A stretch of 64,000 nt of DNA from Dehalococcoidia bacterium (GTDB lineage Bacteria > Chloroflexota > Dehalococcoidia > DSTF01 > JACRBR01), in contig DASQHL010000144.1 of assembly GCA_035632115.1 (NCBI GenBank), positions 1,833 through 65,832 of the forward strand, read 5' to 3'. Shown here one piece after another: positions 3,765-35,482 of the stretch (its first letter is position 1; each line of letters opens with the position of its first letter). Below the pieces are notes generated by a model. That model ran no database searches. It was not told where the DNA came from and saw only the letters and a program-made list of their open reading frames with translations. Made by a program: the position numbers and the translations under genes.

Positions 3765-4592
3765 ATGGGGACGCTATACCTCGTGGCGACCCCGATCGGC
3801 CATCTCGGCGACATCACGTTACGGGCGCTGGAGGTGTTGCGCGCGGTGCCGCTGATCGCGGCCGAGGACACGCGGTCGGCGCGGAAGCTGCTCGCCCACT
3901 TCGAGATCCGGGCGCCGCGGCTGGCGAGCTACAACGAGCACAGCGCGAGCACCCGCACGCCGGCGCTGCTCCGCGCGCTCGAGGACGGCGACGTGGCGTT
4001 GGTGAGCGACGCGGGGATGCCGGGGATCAGTGACCCGGGGTACGACCTCGTCGTGGCGGCGGTGGCCGCGGGCCACACGGTGGTGCCGGTGCCGGGCGCG
4101 TCGGCTGTGGTCGCAGCGGTCGCGGCGAGCGGCCTGCCGTCGCGCCGGTTCCACTATCTTGGCTTCCTGCCGAGGCAGGCCGGGCCGCGTCGTCGCGCGC
4201 TGGCCGCTGCCGGGGCGTCCGGCGATACGCTCGTCGTGTACGAGTCGCCGCACCGGGTGCGGGCGACGCTGGCCGACGCGCTGGCGGCGCTCGGCGACCG
4301 CCGCATCGCCGTGGCGCGCGAGCTGACGAAGCTGCACGAGGAGATCTGGCGGGGCACAATCGCCGGGGCCATCGCGCACTTCGGCGAGCCGCGCGGCGAG
4401 TTCACGCTCGTCATCGAAGGCGGTCCAAGCACCGTGGCGGCGCTAGCGAGGGGCGGCGGCGGCGTAGCAGCGGCGATTGCTCGCCTGCGGGCCGACGGCT
4501 TCGGTGCGAAAGAGGGCGTGGCGGCGCTGATGTCGGAGTTCGGGCTGTCTCGCAGGGCGGCGTACGCGGCCTGGCACCGGCCTCCGCGCTGA
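3765..4592 (+). CDS. rsmI: 16S rRNA (cytidine1402-2'-O)-methyltransferase RsmI
   Basis: MGTLYLVATPIGHLGDITLRALEVL...AAEDTR...YESPHR motifs of the RsmI/tetrapyrrole-methylase fold. Start refined to the internal ATG at 3765. Confidence 0.85.
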   Translation: MGTLYLVATPIGHLGDITLRALEVLRAVPLIAAEDTRSARKLLAHFEIRAPRLASYNEHSASTRTPALLRALEDGDVALVSDAGMPGISDPGYDLVVAAVAAGHTVVPVPGASAVVAAVAASGLPSRRFHYLGFLPRQAGPRRRALAAAGASGDTLVVYESPHRVRATLADALAALGDRRIAVARELTKLHEEIWRGTIAGAIAHFGEPRGEFTLVIEGGPSTVAALARGGGGVAAAIARLRADGFGAKEGVAALMSEFGLSRRAAYAAWHRPPR

Positions 4593-26455: not shown

Positions 26456-27613
26456 CTACACGGTTGTTTCGGCAGGCGCGGCCGCGCGCGTCCGTTCGAC
26501 GAGCTGGCGTTCGTAGATCAGGCGCTCGTAGTACGAGATAACCTGGCGGCTGACGCGGTCCCAGCTGAAATACTGCGCGCGCTCGCGTCCGCGCCGCGCC
26601 ATCTCCGCCGACCGGGCCGGGTCGTGCAGCAGCTCGATGAGCGCGTCCGCGAGCGCCTGCGCGTCCTCCGGCCGCACCAGCAGGCCCTCGACGCCGTTCG
26701 TGACGACGCCGGCGAACCCGTCGATGTTCGACGCGGCGATCGGCAGGCCGGCGGCCATCGCCTCCAGCAGCACGATGCCCTGGCTCTCGAACCCCGTGTT
26801 GGGCGCGCAGAAGACGTGCGCGGTGTGGTGGTAGCGCGGCAGTTCACCGAACGGGACGTGGCTGCGAAACACCACATCGCGCAGGCGCGCGTTTCGCACC
26901 GCCTTCTCGTACCGGTCGAACTTCCCCGCGCCGACGACGATCAGGCGGCTGTCCGGGATCGTCCGCTGCACCCCCACGAACGCCCGGATCAGGTACTTCA
27001 GCCCCTTGCGCTTCTCCGGACGGCCGACAAAGAGGACGTTGCGCTTGCCATCGCTGAACTCCGGCAGCGGCGCCACGTCCGCCGCGAAGTGCTCGAGGTC
27101 CACGCCGTTCGGGATCACGTTGTAGTAGCCGGGGAAGTACTTTTCGACGTGGCGGACGGCGGCCGGCGACACCGCGATCTTCCCGTCGAGCTTGCGCGCC
27201 CAGCGCTTGATCAGCCGGCGGCCGTACACGTACGCCCAGTTCGACTCGCGCGCGGCGTGCCACGTGCCGACGTTGACCGTCGTGGAGTAGCGCAGGAACT
27301 GAATGGGCAGCGTCGGCATGAACGGCTCGTGGACGTGCACGATGTCGAAGTCGGTTCCGGCGAGCACGCGCTTCACGGCGCCGGTCGTGCGCAGCGACAG
27401 CGTGATCCGCGCCACCGAGCCGCTCACCCGCAGCGGGATCGGCCGGCCGATCGTCGTAATCGGGCAGACGGTGCTGGCCACGGGCTTCGAACCCGCGGCG
27501 ATGATGTGCGGCTCATGGCCCATCTCCACGAAGCGCTCCGCAAGGTGCGCGATGTGGTTGTTGACGCCGCCGGAGACGGTCCAATCATAGGGTGAGACCA
27601 GGGCAACCTTCAT
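26456..27613 (-). CDS. GT4 glycosyltransferase (PimA-like mannosyltransferase candidate)
   Basis: MKVALVSPYDWTVSGGVNNHIAHLAERF... is the GT-B/GT4 N-terminus and the C-terminal EGFGIVLLEAMAAGLPIAASN motif is present. Start refined to the internal ATG at 27613. Confidence 0.8.
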   Translation of the reverse strand: MKVALVSPYDWTVSGGVNNHIAHLAERFVEMGHEPHIIAAGSKPVASTVCPITTIGRPIPLRVSGSVARITLSLRTTGAVKRVLAGTDFDIVHVHEPFMPTLPIQFLRYSTTVNVGTWHAARESNWAYVYGRRLIKRWARKLDGKIAVSPAAVRHVEKYFPGYYNVIPNGVDLEHFAADVAPLPEFSDGKRNVLFVGRPEKRKGLKYLIRAFVGVQRTIPDSRLIVVGAGKFDRYEKAVRNARLRDVVFRSHVPFGELPRYHHTAHVFCAPNTGFESQGIVLLEAMAAGLPIAASNIDGFAGVVTNGVEGLLVRPEDAQALADALIELLHDPARSAEMARRGRERAQYFSWDRVSRQVISYYERLIYERQLVERTRAAAPAETTV

Positions 27614-28410
27614 CGCGGACCGCCCTCGTGAGGCGGTGGCGTGGTGGGGCGGGGCCGGTGGCGCGCGTGGCTCACGACGAAGCTGCGGATCGTCGGCGCC
27701 CAACCCATCGCGCGGGGCGTGGCCATCATCCCCCGCCACTGCTGCAGCGCGATGTTTCGGTACCCCAGTTCGGACAGGCGCGGCGGCCGTCCGGGCACGC
27801 CGGACGTCGTCCCCGCCTCGATGGCGCGGCGCAGTGCCTCCGCGGTATGGCCCTGGAACTGCGTGCGCGCGCTGCCGATCGACTGGAGGAAGTGCGCGTC
27901 GCTGGACCCGACCGCTGCCAGGTGGAAGCGCTCGCGGTTGAGCCGCCGCGCCCGCCCGGACGACACGCGGCCGGCCGGGCTCAGGTTGTACTCCTCGATG
28001 CCGTCGAAGTGCGCCGCCGGGTCGGCGCTGGCGGCGACGCGCTCCAGGACCCGCGCGCTGACGCTGCGGGTCAGCCAGGAGAGCGGGTGCGGCACGATGG
28101 CGAGTCCACCCTGACGGTGGATGCCCGCAAGCGTCTCTTCCACCCGGCGGAAGCTGGCGACCGGGTCATCAATGAACAGCGCCAGCAGGTGGCCATCGAG
28201 CGTGGTCACCTCCATGCCGCAGACCAGGTCGAAGGCGTATGCGCCGCGGGCGTGCAGATTGCGCGCCTCATCGGCCGGGCGCAGCGTGTCGTGCTCGGTG
28301 ACGGCGATCACGTCGAGGTCGCGGCGTTCTCCGACGAAGTGCAGCAGCTCGGGCACGGTGGCCATGCCATCGCCGTAGCGCGTGTGGATATGGAGGTCTG
28401 CTGTTCCCAC
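27610..28410 (-). CDS. PHP-domain metal-dependent phosphoesterase
   Basis: ADLHIHTRYGDG...IAVTEHDT...IVPHP are PHP His/Asp motifs. The stop overlaps the GT4 start. Confidence 0.75.
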   Translation of the reverse strand: MGTADLHIHTRYGDGMATVPELLHFVGERRDLDVIAVTEHDTLRPADEARNLHARGAYAFDLVCGMEVTTLDGHLLALFIDDPVASFRRVEETLAGIHRQGGLAIVPHPLSWLTRSVSARVLERVAASADPAAHFDGIEEYNLSPAGRVSSGRARRLNRERFHLAAVGSSDAHFLQSIGSARTQFQGHTAEALRRAIEAGTTSGVPGRPPRLSELGYRNIALQQWRGMMATPRAMGWAPTIRSFVVSHARHRPRPTTPPPHEGGPR

Positions 28411-28477: not shown

Positions 28478-29440
28478 CTAGTGTACCGTCTGCTCCTCGC
28501 CGGGAGCGCCGTGCTCGGGGAGTCCACGCGCCGCCGGCTGCAAGTCGTCCGGCCAGATCCGGTCGAGCACGCTCCACTGGCCGGGATCTTCCTTCAGGTG
28601 ACGCTCGAAGCGCGCCAGCACCGCTTGCGTGTTGGTGCGAAGGTCCCGGTCGTGGTCGCCGGTGATGATCAGCGGCAGCGGTGGGCCGACGCTGGCGCGG
28701 ACTTTGAAGCCGCCTTCCCGGCGCACCCAGCCGGGGAGCAGGACGGCGCCCGTGCGGATGGCGAGGTCCACGGCGCCGGTCGGGAAGCGCGCGGGCGCGC
28801 CGCAGAAGTCCAGCACGATGCCGCGCTTCTGGATGTCGCGGTCGACGAGGATCGCGACGACGCCACCGTCGCGCAGCCAGGCCATGGCGTGCTTGATGGC
28901 GGCAAAGCTCACCGGCTCGTAGCGGTGCCCGTGCACGGTGCGGAGGCTGCGCATCAGCCGGCCGAGCTCGGGAGGGTCCAGCGGCTCGACGAGCGCGAAC
29001 ACCTTGATGCCGGTGGCGAGGAGCCCCTGCACGGCGAACTCGGGGTTGGCGTAGTGCGCCGAGGCGAGCACGACGCCGTGTCCCGCCTTCTGGGCGTCGG
29101 TCACGTACTCCAACCCCTCCAGCACGAGGTCATGGTCGAAGAAGCGCCGCACGTCCATGCGGTGCATCCCTACCACGTCGGCGTAGTAACGGCCGGTGTT
29201 GCGCGCGCAGTCGCGGGCGACTCGGTCCACCTCCTCATCGCTGGCGGCAGGCCCCAGGACGTGGCGGATGTTGCTGCGGACGTTCGGCCCGATGCGCGGG
29301 CCCCAGTCGTACACGCGGTCGGCCACGAAGCGCGCGATGCCGTAGCGCCAGCGGAGCGGGAAGCGGCCGATCGTGTTGATGACCGCCACCATCAGGTAGT
29401 AGCGCCACTTGCTCGGGCGTGGCACCCAGGAGGGGAGCAT
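28478..29440 (-). CDS. LpxL/HtrB/PatA-family lipid acyltransferase (paralogue 2)
   Basis: PF03279-like topology. HX4E motif (AHYANPE). Tandem with the upstream paralogue. Confidence 0.7.
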   Translation of the reverse strand: MLPSWVPRPSKWRYYLMVAVINTIGRFPLRWRYGIARFVADRVYDWGPRIGPNVRSNIRHVLGPAASDEEVDRVARDCARNTGRYYADVVGMHRMDVRRFFDHDLVLEGLEYVTDAQKAGHGVVLASAHYANPEFAVQGLLATGIKVFALVEPLDPPELGRLMRSLRTVHGHRYEPVSFAAIKHAMAWLRDGGVVAILVDRDIQKRGIVLDFCGAPARFPTGAVDLAIRTGAVLLPGWVRREGGFKVRASVGPPLPLIITGDHDRDLRTNTQAVLARFERHLKEDPGQWSVLDRIWPDDLQPAARGLPEHGAPGEEQTVH

Positions 29441-29446
29441 GCGGCG

Positions 29447-30418
29447 TCAGACCTCTTCGGCCAGCTTGCCCGGGCGCGCCCGGACGGGGGACGACTGCTT
29501 CCACATGCGGCGGAAGATGAACCACTGCTCCGGGTAGCGCCGGATCGTCCGCTCCATGGAGTGCATGATGAGGCGCGTCAGCTCCGGGACGTCGTAGGCC
29601 GCGTCCCCGGTGGGCCGATAGTCACGCAGGCTCGAGTCGATGATCGGGCGGATGACCGTGTCGTCCTCCGGCCCGCGCAGGACGACGGCCGGGATCACCC
29701 AGGCGTTCGTCCGCAGCGCCACGCGCGCCGCGGCGGACGAGACGAGCGCCGGCGCGCCGAAGAAGTCGACGCGGATGCCAACCTTTTCGGATGCGACATC
29801 CACCAGCATGGCAAGCGTCTCGCCGCGCCGCAGCGCCTTGAACACGGTCGGTCCAAGGCGATCCTGTCCGATCACCTTCATGCCGAGCTTCTTGCGCGAC
29901 CCCTGCACCAGTTCGTTCATGGGGCCGTAGTGGAAGTTCTCGGCGATCGCGTTGACGGGGTAGCCGAAGGCGGCGAGCGCGGCGGCACCAAGATCCCAGT
30001 TGCCGAAGTGGAGCGTGGCGACGATGACGCCGCGGTCCGAGTTGACCGCCTCGTTCAGCTCGTCCCACTGGTCGAAGCGGAGCCGGCTCTTTACTTCCTC
30101 GGCGGTGATCACGGGGTAGTGGATGAAGTCGACGACGTACTTGCCGAAGTTGCGGAACGAGTGCCGCGCGACCGAATCGACGTAGCGGGCGTCGTCGCTC
30201 TGGAGGACGTGGGCCAGGTTCGCGTTCAGCGCCTTGCGGTGTCGGGGGAAGATGACCCAATAGCAGACGAGGGCGATCCGCTCGGAGAACCAGTACGCCA
30301 CCGGAAGCGGCAGCGGCCGCGTTACGACGATGGCGAGCCGGAACAGCCAGTAGACGGTCCTGTCGAGCAAGCGCTCCTCATCCCGCGATGAACTCCTCCA
30401 CCATGTCGTGCGCGACAT
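29447..30418 (-). CDS. LpxL/HtrB/PatA-family lipid acyltransferase (paralogue 1)
   Basis: HX4D motif (LHFGNWD) plus the downstream acyltransferase-family region. The gene overlaps the MIPS stop. Confidence 0.7.
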
Positions 30419-31739
30419 CGTCCGGGTACTGGCGAGGCGGCGACTTCATGAAGTACGCCGAGGGCCCCTCCAGCGGCCCGGCCAGGCCGCGGTCCAACGC
30501 GATCTTGCAGCAGCGGATCGCATCGATCACCACGCCGGCAGAGTTCGGGCTATCCCACACCTCCAGCTTCACCTCCGCGTTCAGCGGCACGTTGCCGAAG
30601 GTGGTGCCCTCCATGCGAATGTAGCACCATTTGCGGTCAAGAAGCCAAGGCACGTGATCCGAAGGCCCCACGTGCACGTCCCCGGCGGGCAGTTCGTAGT
30701 CCAGCTGGGAGGTGACGGCGCCGGTCTTGGAGATCTTCTTGGATTCGAGCCGCTCCCGTTCGAGCATGTTCAGGAAGTCCGTATTGCCGCCAAAATTGAG
30801 CTGGTAGGTGCGGTCCAGTCGCACCCCCCGGTCCCGGAAGAGGCGCGTCAGCACCCGGTGCACAATGGTTGCGCCGACCTGCGACTTGATGTCGTCGCCG
30901 ATGATCGGCAGCCCCGCTTCCTGGAATCGCTTCGGCCAGTAGCCGAACTGGTCCCGCGCGATGAACACGGGGATGCAGTTGATGAAGCCGCAGCCTGCCG
31001 TGAGCACCTGCTCGACGTACCACTTCGTCGCCTCTTCGGAGCCCACGGGCAGGTAGCTCACGACGACGTCCGTCTCGGTCTCCTTGAGGAGCCGGACAAT
31101 GTCATCGGTGGGGCCGGAGGCCTTCGTGATCACCTGCGACAGGTACTTGCCGAGGCCGTCGTGGGTCATGCCGCGCGAGACGCGCACGCCCTGGTGCGGT
31201 ACGTCGCTGAACTTGTAGGTGTTGTTGGGCGCCGTGAACACCGCCTCGGACAGATCCTTGCCGACCTTGTTCTGGTCGATGTCGATCGCCGCCACGAAGT
31301 TGATATCGCGGATGTGGTAGCCGCCCAGGTTGATGTGCATCAGGCCGGGGATCAGCTCGCCCTCGCGCGCGTCCTGGTAGAAGTAGCGCCCCTGCACGAG
31401 CGAGGAGGCGCAGTTGCCAACGCCGATGATGGCGACGTTGATCTTGCCCTTCTCGCGCTTGCCGGCCTTGTCCGTGGTCCTGGCCTGTGCCTTCGCCCCG
31501 CCCCTGCTCGCCATGTCCGCTGCTCCTTCGCTGAAAAAGAGCCGGTCCTCGCTCATGCCGAAGATGGCGCACGCCGCTTCGATGAACCGCCGGCCCGGCT
31601 GCTTGGTGCCCGCCTTGATCTGGGACAGGTACCCCTCGCTGACGCGGTAGCCGCGGCGCTGCAGTTCGGCCAGCAGCCAGCGTTGCTTCTGGCCGCGTTG
31701 CTCCAGCACCTCGAACACGCGCGTCCTGATCACGGGCAC
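30378..31739 (-). CDS. ino1: myo-Inositol-1-phosphate synthase with an N-terminal XRE-type HTH domain (in-frame fusion; alternative internal start at 31514 would give standalone MIPS)
   Basis: Residues about 20-70 ([50 protein letters not shown]) form an HTH_3 domain. From [19 protein letters not shown] onward the sequence is the bacterial/archaeal MIPS family. No stop separates the two. Both GTG 31733/31739 (GAGGTG RBS) and ATG 31514 (GAAGGAG RBS) are plausible starts. Confidence 0.8.
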
Positions 31740-31816
31740 CTCGGTAAAGTTTGATGAACTCTATGATCCGCTGGCGCCGCGCCGCAAGTTATGAAAACTG
31801 TACCACCGTCGGGCGT

Positions 31817-32722
31817 TCAGGCGCGCTTGCCGAGATAGCTCGCCAGCCCCTCGCGCAGCGGCGTCAGCCTCGCGTGGAGCACCTGCACGGCCAGCGTGTT
31901 GTCCGCGACGGCTGCCTCCGTGATGAAGTCGATCGCGTCGGCGGTGAGCGGCGGCGACGGCAGTGCGGAAGCCAGCGTGCCGAGCAGTTTGCCGATGGCC
32001 GCCGGCTGGTGGAGCAGCGCGCGCCGCTTGCCCGCCACCTCCAGCGCCGTCGCGACGACCTCGTTCATGCTCATCACGTCGGGGCCGCCCAGCTCGAATA
32101 GCTGGTCGGCGGCCTCGGGTCTGGTCGCCGCATCGGCGCACACGCGCCCGACGTCATCGATGAACACCGGCTGCATCGGTTGCTTGCCGTTCCCAAACAT
32201 CGGGATGAAGGGCAGCAGCTTCGCGAATCCCAGGAAGCGGTTGAGCGACACGTCGCCGGGTCCGTACACCCACGTCGGCCGGACGATGGCCCACTCCAGG
32301 CCGCTCCGCTGGAGGTAGTCCTCGGCCTCCCACTTGTAGCGGAACCAGTGCCGTCCGGCGTCCCGGGCCGCGCCGACGCCGCTGACGTACACAAAACGCC
32401 GCGCGCCGGCCGCCTTCGCCGCGTCGACCTGGTGGCGGGTGCCCTTGAGGTCGATCTCCTCGAACGTCCACCCCTTGCGCCGGTTCTCGATAGGCGAGTT
32501 CGGGAACTGGACGGCGTTCACCACCACGTCGACATCCCGCATGGCGGCCGCGAGCGCCGCCGGCTCGCGCACGTCGCCGGCGCGTGCCTGCAGGTCAGCG
32601 CCGAAGCGCGCGCGGATCTTCGCGGCGTCGCGCCCCAGCACGGCGACCTTCTCGCCGCGGCGCACCAACTCGGCGACGATCGCCGACCCGACAAAACCAG
32701 TCCCTCCCGATACGAGGATCAT
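31817..32722 (-). CDS. NAD(P)-binding epimerase/dehydratase-like SDR (NDUFA9/NmrA-like)
   Basis: MILVSGGTGFVGSAIV Rossmann motif and the YxxxK region. Confidence 0.7.
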   Translation of the reverse strand: MILVSGGTGFVGSAIVAELVRRGEKVAVLGRDAAKIRARFGADLQARAGDVREPAALAAAMRDVDVVVNAVQFPNSPIENRRKGWTFEEIDLKGTRHQVDAAKAAGARRFVYVSGVGAARDAGRHWFRYKWEAEDYLQRSGLEWAIVRPTWVYGPGDVSLNRFLGFAKLLPFIPMFGNGKQPMQPVFIDDVGRVCADAATRPEAADQLFELGGPDVMSMNEVVATALEVAGKRRALLHQPAAIGKLLGTLASALPSPPLTADAIDFITEAAVADNTLAVQVLHARLTPLREGLASYLGKRA

Positions 32723-32800
32723 CGCGGACCTCCCCTCTCCAATCGATGCGACCATCGATTGACATCATATGCGAGCGCGGCACCCCCGAGGATCACTTGG

Positions 32801-33655
32801 TCACGCAGGAACGTGGCGGTGCGCCGATCCCGGCGGCAGCCCCTCGGCGATCGTATCTCCGCGCACGTACGCAGCGACGACGTGCGTCAGTGCCTCCGGA
32901 TGCTCCTCCCAGTACGTCGGTGACGGCGCGACCGCGAGCTTCGCGTGCGGCATCTGCTGGTGCAAGATCTCGCCCGAGGAGAGCGGGTGGATCGGGTCGA
33001 CGGGGTGCGTCAGGATCAGCGCCGGACAGGCGATCTCGGCGAGCCGCTCGACCGGGATCGGCGCGCCGCCGAGCAGGCCGCGGATGGCGGGGACGATCGC
33101 CGCGCGCCGCTGGCTGGCGAGCAGCACGCGGAGCCTGCGCCGCTGCGACGCGTCGCCTGCTCGCTTCGCCGGAAGGGCGGCCACGATAGCTGCCGTCATG
33201 CGGACGCCCAGCAGCTTGTACATCGTCGCCAGCGCGCCGGAGAACATCCGCCGGGCGGGGCGCGCCTCCGCGCCGAACCCCGGCGGCGCGCGCAGGATCA
33301 ACCGGTCGACGGCCTCCGGATGTGCGAGCGCGAGCAGTAGCGCGGTGCCCGCGCCCATCGAGCCGCCATAGATCGCGGCCCGCTCGATGCCCAGCGCGCG
33401 CATGAGCGCGCGCATGTCTTCGGCCAGCGCCGTCCACGCATAATCGGCACGAGCTGTCGTGTAGCCGGAACGGCCGTGGCCCCGCGCGTCGTAAGCGACG
33501 ACGTGCACACCGCGCGCGGCGATGTCCTCGAGGCGCTCGCCGAACTGCGGCAGCGCGGCGATGCTGCCGAGCAGGCCGTGCGCGACGACGAGGTCGGGGC
33601 CCTCGCCGTGCTCCTCGTAGTAGATGTCGATGCCGCGGACGCGGACCGTGGGCAT
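32801..33655 (-). CDS. Alpha/beta hydrolase
   Basis: VVAHGLLGS and YGGSMGAG nucleophile elbow. Confidence 0.75.
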   Translation of the reverse strand: MPTVRVRGIDIYYEEHGEGPDLVVAHGLLGSIAALPQFGERLEDIAARGVHVVAYDARGHGRSGYTTARADYAWTALAEDMRALMRALGIERAAIYGGSMGAGTALLLALAHPEAVDRLILRAPPGFGAEARPARRMFSGALATMYKLLGVRMTAAIVAALPAKRAGDASQRRRLRVLLASQRRAAIVPAIRGLLGGAPIPVERLAEIACPALILTHPVDPIHPLSSGEILHQQMPHAKLAVAPSPTYWEEHPEALTHVVAAYVRGDTIAEGLPPGSAHRHVPA

Positions 33656-33671: not shown

Positions 33672-34478
33672 CTAGAGGTGCGTCGTCAGGCCGCCATCGA
33701 CGAACATCACCTGGCCGCTGATGTAGCCGCAGGAGTCGGACGCGAGGTAGACGGCCAGCGGCCCTAGCTCGTCGGCGGCGCCGGCGCGCTTCATCGGCAC
33801 GAAGCGCACGGTCTGGTTCGCCGCCGGGTCCGGGTTGCCGATGGCCGGCGTGTGCTCCATCCATCCCTGCGCGATGGCGTTGACCGTGATTCCGTGCGGG
33901 CCCCACTCCGTCGCCAGCGCCCGCGTCAGGTTCAGGACGCCGGCCTGCGCCGCGCAATACGCCGCGGCGTTGGCGATGGCACGCTCGCCCAGCACCGACG
34001 CGACGTTGACGATGCGGCCGCCGCGCCCTTGCCGCAGCATCTCCTTGCCGACGGCGCGGCAGGCGTGGAACGTGCCGGCGAGGTTCACCTGCATCACCCG
34101 GTTGAAGTCGATGTCGCTCGTGGACTCCGCGGGCTTGCCGAGGAAGAGGTCGGGCGCGTTCACCAGCACGTCGATGCCGTCCATATCTTTCGCGACCTGC
34201 CGCACCATCACCTGCACGCCCTGTCCCAGCGTCACGTCGGTCGCCACGGTGGCGGACTTGCGGCCCATCTTCACCAGCTCCTGCTGGACGCGGCGCGCGC
34301 GCATCACCTCCTCGCCGTCGTTGGTGACGGACGACACAGTGACATCGGCGCCCGCCTCGCCCAGCGCCAGCGCGATCGCCCGGCCGGCCGCACCTCCCGC
34401 GCCGATCACCAGCGCGCGCTTGCCGGTGAGGTCGAAGGCATCGAGGCCGAGGCGGACGTCGCCCCATTCGTTCTTCAC
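33672..34478 (-). CDS. SDR-family oxidoreductase
   Basis: LVIGAGGAAGRAIA...NAA...YCAAQAG are the TGxxxGxG-like and YxxxK motifs. GTG start overlaps the upstream SDR stop (GTGA). Confidence 0.8.
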   Translation of the reverse strand: MKNEWGDVRLGLDAFDLTGKRALVIGAGGAAGRAIALALGEAGADVTVSSVTNDGEEVMRARRVQQELVKMGRKSATVATDVTLGQGVQVMVRQVAKDMDGIDVLVNAPDLFLGKPAESTSDIDFNRVMQVNLAGTFHACRAVGKEMLRQGRGGRIVNVASVLGERAIANAAAYCAAQAGVLNLTRALATEWGPHGITVNAIAQGWMEHTPAIGNPDPAANQTVRFVPMKRAGAADELGPLAVYLASDSCGYISGQVMFVDGGLTTHL

Positions 34479-35290
34479 AGCGCGACCTCCGGGGCGAAGC
34501 CCATCGGCGCCAGCCCGCCCGCGAGGCCGCCGCCGTCGATGACGAAGCCCTGGCCCGTGACGTAGCTGGAGGCGTCGGACGCGAGGAAGATGGCGAGGGG
34601 GCCCAGCTCCCACGCCTCGCCGAGGCGCTGCGCGGGAAGGTATCGGCCACGCGTCTGGGCGAACACCTGCTCCTGCTCGTTGCGGGCGGGGCCCTGCCGC
34701 ACGAAGCCCGGGATGATGCAGTTGACGCGGATGCCGTGCTTCACGAGCATCGCCGACAGCGACTTCGTGAGGGCGATGACGCCGGCCTTCGCCGCCCCGT
34801 AGCCGAAGCTCATCGGGTAGGCGCGGAGCGCCGTGCCGGACGCGAGGTTGATGATCGTTCCGCCGTGGCCCTGCGCGACCATCTGCTTCGATGCGGCGCG
34901 CGCGCAGTAGAAGGCGCTCGACAGGTTCACGTCGAGCGTGTCGCGCCAGTCGGCGTCGTCGACGTCCCACAGCTCGGCGTTGGCGCCGCGCATGTCGCCG
35001 ATGCCGGCGTTGGAGAGCATGACGTCGAGGCGGCCGAACTCGTCGGCGGCTCGCCGGACCAGCGCGTCGCACTGGGCGGAGTCGCGCACGTCCGTGGGCT
35101 GGGCGATGGTGCGGCGGCCGAGCGCGCGGATGTCGGCGGCGGTGCGCTCGATCTGCTCTGCGGTGCGGGCGGCGCAGACGACGTCGGCTCCGGCGTCCGC
35201 GAGCGCAAGTGCCATCTGCCGCCCGAGACCGCGGCCGGCGCCGGTGACGACGGCGACCTTGCCATCGAGCTTCAGGCGTTCAAGGACCAT
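34475..35290 (-). CDS. SDR-family oxidoreductase
   Basis: VAVVTGAGRGLGRQMA...NAG...YGAAKAG motifs. Confidence 0.8.
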   Translation of the reverse strand: MVLERLKLDGKVAVVTGAGRGLGRQMALALADAGADVVCAARTAEQIERTAADIRALGRRTIAQPTDVRDSAQCDALVRRAADEFGRLDVMLSNAGIGDMRGANAELWDVDDADWRDTLDVNLSSAFYCARAASKQMVAQGHGGTIINLASGTALRAYPMSFGYGAAKAGVIALTKSLSAMLVKHGIRVNCIIPGFVRQGPARNEQEQVFAQTRGRYLPAQRLGEAWELGPLAIFLASDASSYVTGQGFVIDGGGLAGGLAPMGFAPEVAL

Positions 35291-35482
35291 CGGCGGCTCC
35301 TTCCGGGTGGTGTCGCCAGTGTACGAGTGGGCGGGGAAAGCGGGAAGCGAGAGGCGAGAGACGGGAAGCGGGAGGTGGGATGCGCGAGGTGGGAGAGGTG
35401 GGAGGGTGCGATGGCTGCTTCCCGATGCGACGTGATCCGCGGGCCGAGGTTAACTTTCCGGCGCGCAGGGCGTTGTACGCAC

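Follow-up and report, generated by a model that had tools for sequence, protein, structure and literature searches.

A conserved fusion of an XRE-type helix-turn-helix domain to myo-inositol-1-phosphate synthase in Dehalococcoidia and a candidate operator at its promoter

At 30378..31739 (-) in the 64,000-nt stretch of DNA analyzed here (the window; contig DASQHL010000144.1, positions 1,833 to 65,832 of the forward strand, assembly GCA_035632115.1), which derives from a Dehalococcoidia bacterium of the Chloroflexota, one maximal open reading frame (ORF) of 453 codons plus a stop codon, with a GTG start, encodes a helix-turn-helix (HTH) domain, a linker, and a myo-inositol-1-phosphate (inositol-3-phosphate) synthase (MIPS). 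An uninterrupted HTH-MIPS frame had been described in the initial annotation, which was made from the sequence alone, and we found the ORF exactly as described. The XRE/Cro-C1-type HTH domain occupies 31530..31733 (-) (residues 3-70; five helices and short terminal strands) and is followed by a basic linker at 31443..31529 (-) (residues 71-99) that is predicted to be disordered and varies in length and sequence. The MIPS domain extends over 30381..31442 (-) (residues 100-453). The G+C content at third codon positions was 0.90 in the HTH, 0.89 in the linker, and 0.91 in MIPS, and the coding-like composition previously ascribed to the N-terminal part was thus borne out.

A search with the full protein returned more than 100 clusters (90% identity clustering) of the same ~450-amino acid (aa) architecture, 436-485 aa long and 75-92% identical to the query with full coverage. 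This set is biased toward fusions; therefore, DNA loci were gathered independently and comprised 15 metagenome loci obtained with the HTH alone, 2 genome loci, and 5 loci obtained through proteins (including locus L096). The HTH and MIPS lay in a single stop-free frame in 21/21 testable loci, 13 of which had been found with the HTH alone, and the frame of L096 was intact although NCBI had called just a 380-aa MIPS. Since the fusion is conserved at all testable loci, it is not the product of a sequencing error that created or removed a stop codon between HTH and MIPS, a concern raised in the initial annotation. Two NCBI entries named 'hypothetical protein, partial' (P0121 and P0125) were considered as unfused counter-examples and rejected; they in fact reflect a contig end and a 100-N scaffold gap.

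Pairwise ratios of nonsynonymous to synonymous substitution rates (dN/dS) were 0.25 for the HTH, 0.73 for the linker, and 0.13 for MIPS, and the linker carried several in-frame insertions or deletions among homologues. The value of 0.25 indicates that the HTH is translated and under purifying selection and, because the HTH has no stop codon of its own, its translation must yield a fusion. Long open frames ahead of true starts are common in GC-rich genomes, and in the unfused loci of this GC-rich group the open frame 5' of MIPS ranged from 3 to 379 codons; for this reason, the evidence for the fusion is the conserved and selected HTH domain, not the mere openness of the frame. The same open frames, and the 354-380-aa form called by NCBI in relatives, would agree with an extension that is a chance open frame or an assembly or sequencing artifact, so that only the MIPS from the ATG at 31514 is real and the upstream ORF is not expressed. 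This explanation is effectively refuted by the dN/dS of the HTH and its high-confidence predicted fold, by the intact frame in 21 independent assemblies, and by the promoter and Shine-Dalgarno (SD) sequence ahead of the first start, both of which are described below. The HTH-MIPS fusion is confirmed as real, conserved, and selected.

The fusion is concealed by current annotation. JGI labels the 450-aa ORF plainly as 'myo-inositol-1-phosphate synthase', and the shorter NCBI calls (e.g., MBF6599762.1, MEX2247684.1, and locus L102) leave a conserved HTH-coding stretch of ~200 nt unannotated. Neither mentions an HTH; the putative regulatory domain is invisible in current databases as a consequence of the truncated NCBI gene and the plain JGI name. 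No description of an HTH-MIPS fusion was found in the literature or databases searched.

The HTH was present at 2 of the 80 best loci of GTDB species representatives. The other 78 were mostly from Chloroflexota and had cores that were 73-79% identical, and neither a standalone HTH gene nor an HTH remnant was found upstream of these 78 unfused MIPS genes. For a neighbor-joining tree of the MIPS core, a midpoint-rooted monophyly test was uninformative and an unrooted split test was used in its place. One branch parted 133 fused from all 79 unfused sequences, and only the divergent L091/L093 lineage sat on the unfused side of that split. The topology fits a fusion that arose once, or at most twice, and was then retained for a long time; named sources assign the clade to Dehalococcoidia. 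L091 and L093 make up a divergent fused lineage whose MIPS cores group with the unfused ones, and they may represent a second fusion event or the deepest branch.

Judged by family profiles and predicted structure, the N-terminal segment is an XRE-type HTH at the family level. We aligned 43 nonredundant N-terminal segments; when these members were scanned singly, HTH_31 was matched by 27/43 (best E 6.5e-10) and HTH_3 by 21/43 (best E 4.6e-8). As a single sequence, residues 1-75 of the window protein remained below the cut-off for both models (21.1 bits vs 27 for HTH_31, and 13.5 vs 23 for HTH_3). The earlier wording 'canonical HTH_3 fold' was therefore right as to the XRE type, which the family profiles and the predicted fold support, but overstated for a single sequence below the Pfam threshold. 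The family profile matched ClgR (5WOQ, E 1.9e-5), SinR, EspR, C.BclI, and phage CI/Cro proteins in the PDB, and these matches aligned across the recognition helix, S-x-x-Y-L-S-x-x-x-x-G-x-K. Residues Q17, W19, S32, Y35, S37, G42, F50, and F66 were invariant in the alignment (numbered by its first sequence, which begins at ORF residue 3). Conservation was highest in the recognition-helix signature S-x-x-Y-L-S-x-x-x-x-G-x-K-x-P, which is common to ClgR and SinR; the recognition helix of the window protein extends from approximately S34 to residue 44.

The AlphaFold model of the full-length protein contained five helices at residues 8-67 with a predicted local distance difference test score (pLDDT) of 86-96, and the pLDDT of linker residues 73-94 was below 50. 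The isolated domain was modeled with a pLDDT of 94.5, and the top 50 Foldseek matches of this model in the PDB were all XRE-type DNA-binding domains. The best structural match was CylR2 (1UTX), with a template modeling (TM) score of 0.83-0.87 and a root mean square deviation of 1.4 A across all 70 residues. The HTH family is small, with 28 matches in an exhaustive search of 1.84 billion representatives. Short matches were mostly truncated or chimeric fusions running on toward MIPS, and the weakest matches were ordinary tandem XRE proteins; P0144 and P0150 are standalone distant relatives of ~100 aa.

The small size and divergence of this family, together with the subthreshold Pfam scores of the window sequence, could be taken to mean that the domain no longer binds DNA and instead modulates the enzyme through localization, partner binding, or allostery. 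We consider this very improbable, because the recognition-helix signature is the most conserved part of the domain, the predicted fold is that of a complete XRE DNA-binding domain, and a specific DNA motif co-occurs with the fusion. This conserved motif, described below, is also what argues for sequence-specific DNA binding by the HTH.

In two fragments, P0140 and P0141, an HTH of the same family and its linker are followed by GKINVAIVGLGVGAEFIPIYQ..., which diverges from MIPS. The continuation resembles the N-terminus of a Gfo/Idh/MocA-type oxidoreductase, raising the possibility of a different enzyme partner or of a chimeric assembly.

Residues 100-451 of the window protein matched MIPS; PF01658 (Inos-1-P_synth) scored 122 bits (cut-off, 27; E 1.5e-35), and TIGR03450 was aligned over positions 1-355 of 355 (E 1.6e-160). 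The TIGR03450 score of 534 bits was below the cut-off of 638 for this mycothiol-type INO1 equivalog, which marks the protein as a related MIPS and not as an equivalog member; therefore, we make no claim regarding mycothiol. The closest solved structure was M. tuberculosis Ino1 (1GR0, E 4e-146), with positions 1-354 of the core aligned to residues 16-367, and the NAD-binding Rossmann motif is present at the N-terminus of the core. We defined 158 family-invariant columns as those at least 97% invariant across 79 unfused MIPS. At least 95% of the fused proteins kept 151 of them, and the window protein differed at 1. The MIPS moiety is complete and apparently active, and its conservation and its operon context with inositol-lipid genes suggest that it converts glucose-6-phosphate to inositol-3-phosphate.

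The likely first start of the fused gene is the GTG at 31731..31733 (-), not the one at 31739. The latter has no SD sequence (pairing energy dG +2.3), whereas GTG 31733, two codons inward, lies 5 nt downstream of GAGG at 31742-31739 (dG -7.2) and would give a 451-aa product with the homologue-like N-terminus MIRTRVF. An internal in-frame ATG at 31512..31514 (-), encoding Met76, is preceded at 8 nt by the SD sequence GAAGGAG at 31523..31529 (-) (dG -8.5) and is the probable start of a 378-aa HTH-less MIPS; in relatives, NCBI annotates the gene from this start. Of the ribosome-binding sites assigned to both starts in the initial annotation, the internal one stands as given; the upstream one serves GTG 31733 and not 31739.

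An in-frame ATG located 2-8 nt after GGAG, AGGAG, or AGGAGG was found in the linker of 18 of the 19 distinct loci. The pairing energy of the internal SD had a median dG of -8.6 kcal/mol, and an equally strong SD occurred at ~3% of codon positions in the same ORFs. The GGAG lay in differing codon phases across loci, which indicates selection on the nucleotides and not on the encoded 'E-G-G' residues, and the SD and ATG have been kept although the surrounding linker evolves almost neutrally. Unfused relatives begin with 'MAxKNG...' and have a similar basic tail at the equivalent place; therefore, the internal Met corresponds to the start of an unfused MIPS. The SD of the first start was weaker across loci (median dG -5.9), from which we infer that HTH-less MIPS predominates over HTH-MIPS. 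The locus had been suggested to produce a fusion, a standalone enzyme, or both. Selection on an HTH that lacks its own stop codon and the internal SD and ATG at nearly all loci suggest that the full-length fusion and the HTH-less MIPS are probably both made from one frame, with locus L092 as an exception (see below). In L091 and L093, the first start has no SD, and the internal ATG is located just 3 codons before the Rossmann strand.

Two products could also arise from a precursor whose disordered linker is cleaved post-translationally to give a separate XRE regulator of 8 kDa next to a normal MIPS. The linker is indeed long, disordered, and nearly neutral, and the standalone relatives P0144 and P0150 exist; however, no conserved cleavage motif was visible in the linker, and a stop codon would be simpler, yet none has arisen in the 21 loci or the more than 100 clusters. 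A freed 70-residue HTH would also lose the oligomerization provided by the enzyme, and we regard cleavage as improbable.

A single-sequence scan of 31400-32000 for promoters and terminators found nothing, and the promoter was inferred solely from cross-locus alignment, which gave the layout TTGAyg, a 17-18-nt spacer, and TAnAGT or GATAAT. The 10-bp motif AAACTTWACC begins 5 nt past the -10 hexamer in 9 loci, at approximately -1 to +9. A second copy lies 51-52 nt upstream, just 5' of the -35 hexamer, and is usually inverted (GGTWAAGWTTT); a weaker third copy, TAACTTGAyC, overlaps the -35 hexamer. The corresponding elements in the window are a putative -35 hexamer, TTGCGG, at 31782..31787 (-) (TTGAyg in relatives), an 18-nt spacer, and a putative -10 hexamer, TAGAGT, at 31758..31763 (-), the positional homologue of TAnAGT, which ends 5 nt before the proximal operator-like motif. 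This motif, AAACTTTACC, is located at 31743..31752 (-), about -1 to +9 of the inferred promoter, whose predicted transcription start is near 31751. The weak third copy, TAACTTGCGG, is at 31791-31782 (-). The distal operator-like motif, AAACTGTACC (gene strand GGTACAGTTT), is at 31795..31804 (+), inverted relative to the proximal motif, 52 nt away from it, and just upstream of the -35 hexamer; it starts 12 nt past the stop codon of the upstream gene. With arms that match at just 8/10 positions, the inverted repeat of the intergenic region escaped a generic repeat finder; the pair emerged from the cross-locus comparison.

The motif was strongly associated with the fused genes. Within 200 nt upstream of the fused genes it occurred at a density of 7.1 per kb, compared with 0.2 per kb elsewhere in the same loci (~150 kb). 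The histogram of pair spacings had a peak of 17 pairs at 51-53 nt, with no more than 4 at every other spacing. The pair occurred at 16 of the 23 distinct fused loci and at 0/77 unfused controls; the corresponding numbers for a strong single site were 20/23 and 2/77. Allowing at most one mismatch, we found zero matches in 30.5 kb upstream of unfused MIPS genes. The 64-kb window contained 3 matches against 0.3 expected, two of which bracket the HTH-MIPS promoter. The third window copy, AAAGTTAACC, at 35448-35457 (-), has 1 mismatch and lies ~160 nt upstream of an SDR gene at 34475..35290 (-). It has no partner at 51-52 nt and may be a second target or a chance match (0.3 expected per window). 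Between this copy and the start of the SDR gene, at ~35310-35410, lies a long low-complexity tract rich in C and T.

In L083, L085, and L086, the pair and the promoter are located 270-510 nt upstream of the fused gene, with an intervening ORF for a ~150-aa hydrophobic, probably membrane, protein. The inserted ORF of L086 (4544-5008) overlaps the HTH-MIPS start by 8 nt. The motif was also present at L099 and L100, where the fused gene has no downstream lipid genes; therefore, it is linked to the fused gene itself. We rejected the idea that the proximal motif acts at the RNA level or in translation, because a second copy lies upstream of the -35 hexamer and the pair stays with the promoter in L083, L085, and L086. 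An arrangement of two 23-bp palindromic operators, with four half-sites for four HTHs, is not claimed here, as the inner halves overlap the -35 and -10 hexamers and were mostly subthreshold.

The region proposed in the initial annotation as a target for the HTH, 31740-31810, contains both motif copies. Since the motif is also tied to the fused genes, this provides independent support for autoregulation, and the sequence comparison supports the motif pair as a candidate operator. Alternatively, the motif pair could be the target of another regulator specific to this clade, or could belong to the promoter as, for example, an UP element, while HTH-MIPS regulates other genes in trans or binds DNA nonspecifically. 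The link between motif and HTH is correlative and the fused loci essentially represent one clade, the third copy in the window lies upstream of the unrelated SDR gene, and the motif has some similarity to a -35 box (CTTGAC variants). Against these points, the motif is rare elsewhere in the same loci and the pair is absent from the promoters of all 77 unfused controls; it accompanies the fused gene with or without lipid genes; and a site across the transcription start is at a typical repressor position, not at that of an UP element. We therefore judge this alternative unlikely and favor autoregulation.

Several observations nevertheless weigh against autoregulation through two isoforms and a two-site operator. 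The association of the motif with the HTH was observed within one clade, and another clade-specific factor could bind it. The proximal sites themselves supplied the scoring matrix, and only the distal partner and the unfused control do not depend on it. In the window, the promoter hexamers are weak (7/12) and were overlooked by a consensus scan, and the distal site has two mismatches. The canonical pair is absent from L084, L087, and L097, and in L091 and L093 the distal copy is in direct orientation and adjoins the -35 hexamer. The usual targets of XRE domains, which bind as dimers, are half-sites separated by one helical turn (compact palindromes), not 10-bp sites five turns apart. Finally, the linker of L092 (~3950-4030) has no in-frame ATG, GTG, or TTG; as judged from its sequence, this locus can make the full-length fusion only, and the short isoform is not universal. 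L092 is thus a natural case in which to see if the fusion can serve as the enzyme on its own.

Downstream of the fused gene, and on the same strand, the window contains two genes for Lip_A-type acyltransferases at 29447-30418 (-) and 28478-29440 (-), a gene for a PHP_C protein at 27610-28410 (-), and a gene for a GT4 glycosyltransferase at 26456-27739 (-), all given as maximal ORFs. The same order was found in L096, L097, and L098, and L097 adds a CDP-alcohol phosphatidyltransferase. The actinobacterial gene set for phosphatidylinositol mannosides is pgsA1-patA-pimA. By analogy, the fused gene appears to head a cluster that resembles one for a phosphatidylinositol-mannoside-like lipid, with MIPS supplying the committed precursor. 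One speculative role for the PHP_C protein is that of the missing phosphatidylinositol-phosphate phosphatase. As a maximal ORF, the first acyltransferase gene begins at ATG 30418 and shares 41 nt with the 3' end of MIPS; its more likely start is a TTG near 30369, which is just past the MIPS stop codon and preceded by GGAGGAG, and the counterpart in L096 starts 9 nt after MIPS. The fused gene is directly preceded by a co-oriented NmrA/epimerase-like gene, often with an alpha/beta-hydrolase gene (31817-33655 (-) in the window; also in L096, L097, L101, and L102). No terminator was detected between the NmrA/epimerase-like gene and the promoter of the fused gene in the window.

These results lead us to propose, as the probable though far from certain explanation, that HTH-MIPS is a bifunctional protein with two isoforms that represses its own inositol-lipid operon through a two-site operator. 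A CylR2-like XRE HTH would be tethered by a flexible basic linker of ~30 residues to a complete MIPS, and the frame would give a full-length product from GTG 31733 and an HTH-less product from ATG 31514, which has the stronger ribosome-binding site. MIPS forms homotetramers; a tetramer of 120 x 100 A has been reported for the fungal enzyme (PMC11348189). By analogy, a tetramer of the Dehalococcoidia protein would display up to four HTH domains. The HTHs would bind two AAACTTWACC sites, one upstream of the -35 hexamer and one across the transcription start, that are approximately five helical turns apart and thus on the same face of the DNA. Two tethers and the enzyme body could plausibly span the 52 bp (~177 A), or a modest bend in the DNA might bring the sites nearer. 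Occupancy at -52..-42 and -1..+9 would exclude RNA polymerase, and the operon would be repressed as the enzyme accumulates. DNA binding might possibly respond to glucose-6-phosphate, inositol phosphate, or NAD(H).

A more elaborate version, which we put forward tentatively and do not expect to be the likelier outcome, is that of a self-titrating repressor. The two starts would set the number of HTHs per tetramer, only oligomers with at least two HTHs would clamp both sites, and glucose-6-phosphate, NAD(H), or inositol phosphate would tune binding, resulting in direct feedback on the first committed step of inositol-lipid synthesis. Two in-frame starts in an oligomeric enzyme would suggest a simple way to set the valency of a regulator. 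If verified, the dual in-frame isoforms and the promoter-bracketing pair at five-turn spacing would raise the interest of the system.

The control of inositol synthesis outside Actinobacteria is essentially unknown, and the fusion offers a candidate one-protein answer in the widespread, mostly uncultured Dehalococcoidia. The genes of the operon further point to a phosphatidylinositol-mannoside-like lipid pathway in Chloroflexota.

BirA, PutA, and NadR are 'trigger enzymes', bifunctional enzyme/repressors in which a DNA-binding domain is fused to the enzyme. The archaeal RbkR is a further bifunctional enzyme/repressor (PMC5397151). As in these proteins, HTH-MIPS combines an enzyme and a DNA-binding domain in one polypeptide, and its predicted target is the promoter of its own pathway. 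It differs from them in its MIPS partner, an enzyme not previously reported in such a role, in its CylR2-like XRE domain on a long disordered tether, in its candidate operator of two 10-bp sites ~52 bp apart around the promoter, and in the apparent co-production of an HTH-less isoform. Although new for MIPS, the architecture is of a known kind. The motif pair supports the earlier suggestion of an autoregulatory architecture; 'unusual' is the part that must be tempered, since fusions of enzymes to DNA-binding domains are a known class.

The layout is similar to that of BzdR, which is reported to consist of an XRE HTH, a linker, and a shikimate-kinase-like domain that has lost its activity and serves only as an effector sensor (PMC3602430). 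In both proteins, a linker joins an XRE HTH at the N-terminus to an enzyme-derived C-terminal domain; unlike that of BzdR, the MIPS moiety is probably still a working enzyme, given its 151 of 158 conserved invariant positions and its low dN/dS. The authors of the BzdR study reportedly built a 'missing link' stage artificially (PMC3602430), and HTH-MIPS resembles that stage in having gained a DNA-binding domain while apparently keeping its activity. It may thus be a natural example of a working enzyme that gained a DNA-binding domain without losing its catalytic function.

The HTH shares its fold over the whole length, and its signature, with CylR2 (1UTX), SinR, ClgR, and the N-terminal domain of TP901-1 CI, to which it is 16-25% identical. 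These regulators are free-standing or joined to dimerization or sensor domains and bind compact palindromes. ClpB, IF2, and CheA are made as two isoforms from in-frame internal translation starts, and HTH-MIPS likewise has a conserved internal SD and start codon within a longer ORF. Unlike those of ClpB, IF2, and CheA, the isoforms of HTH-MIPS, as predicted from sequence, would be told apart by the presence or absence of an entire DNA-binding domain and could assemble together into one oligomer.

Among MIPS proteins, the Arabidopsis enzyme has been implicated in nuclear gene regulation besides catalysis (PMC13210883); this eukaryotic protein has no fused HTH and is evolutionarily unrelated as a regulatory device. 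The core of HTH-MIPS aligns end to end with M. tuberculosis Ino1 (1GR0) and with unfused Chloroflexota MIPS, and its Met76 form would correspond to an ordinary bacterial MIPS, whereas both Ino1 and the unfused Chloroflexota enzymes lack a DNA-binding domain. Regulation of ino1 in corynebacteria and mycobacteria is the task of IpsA, a separate protein of the LacI type (PMC3899939).

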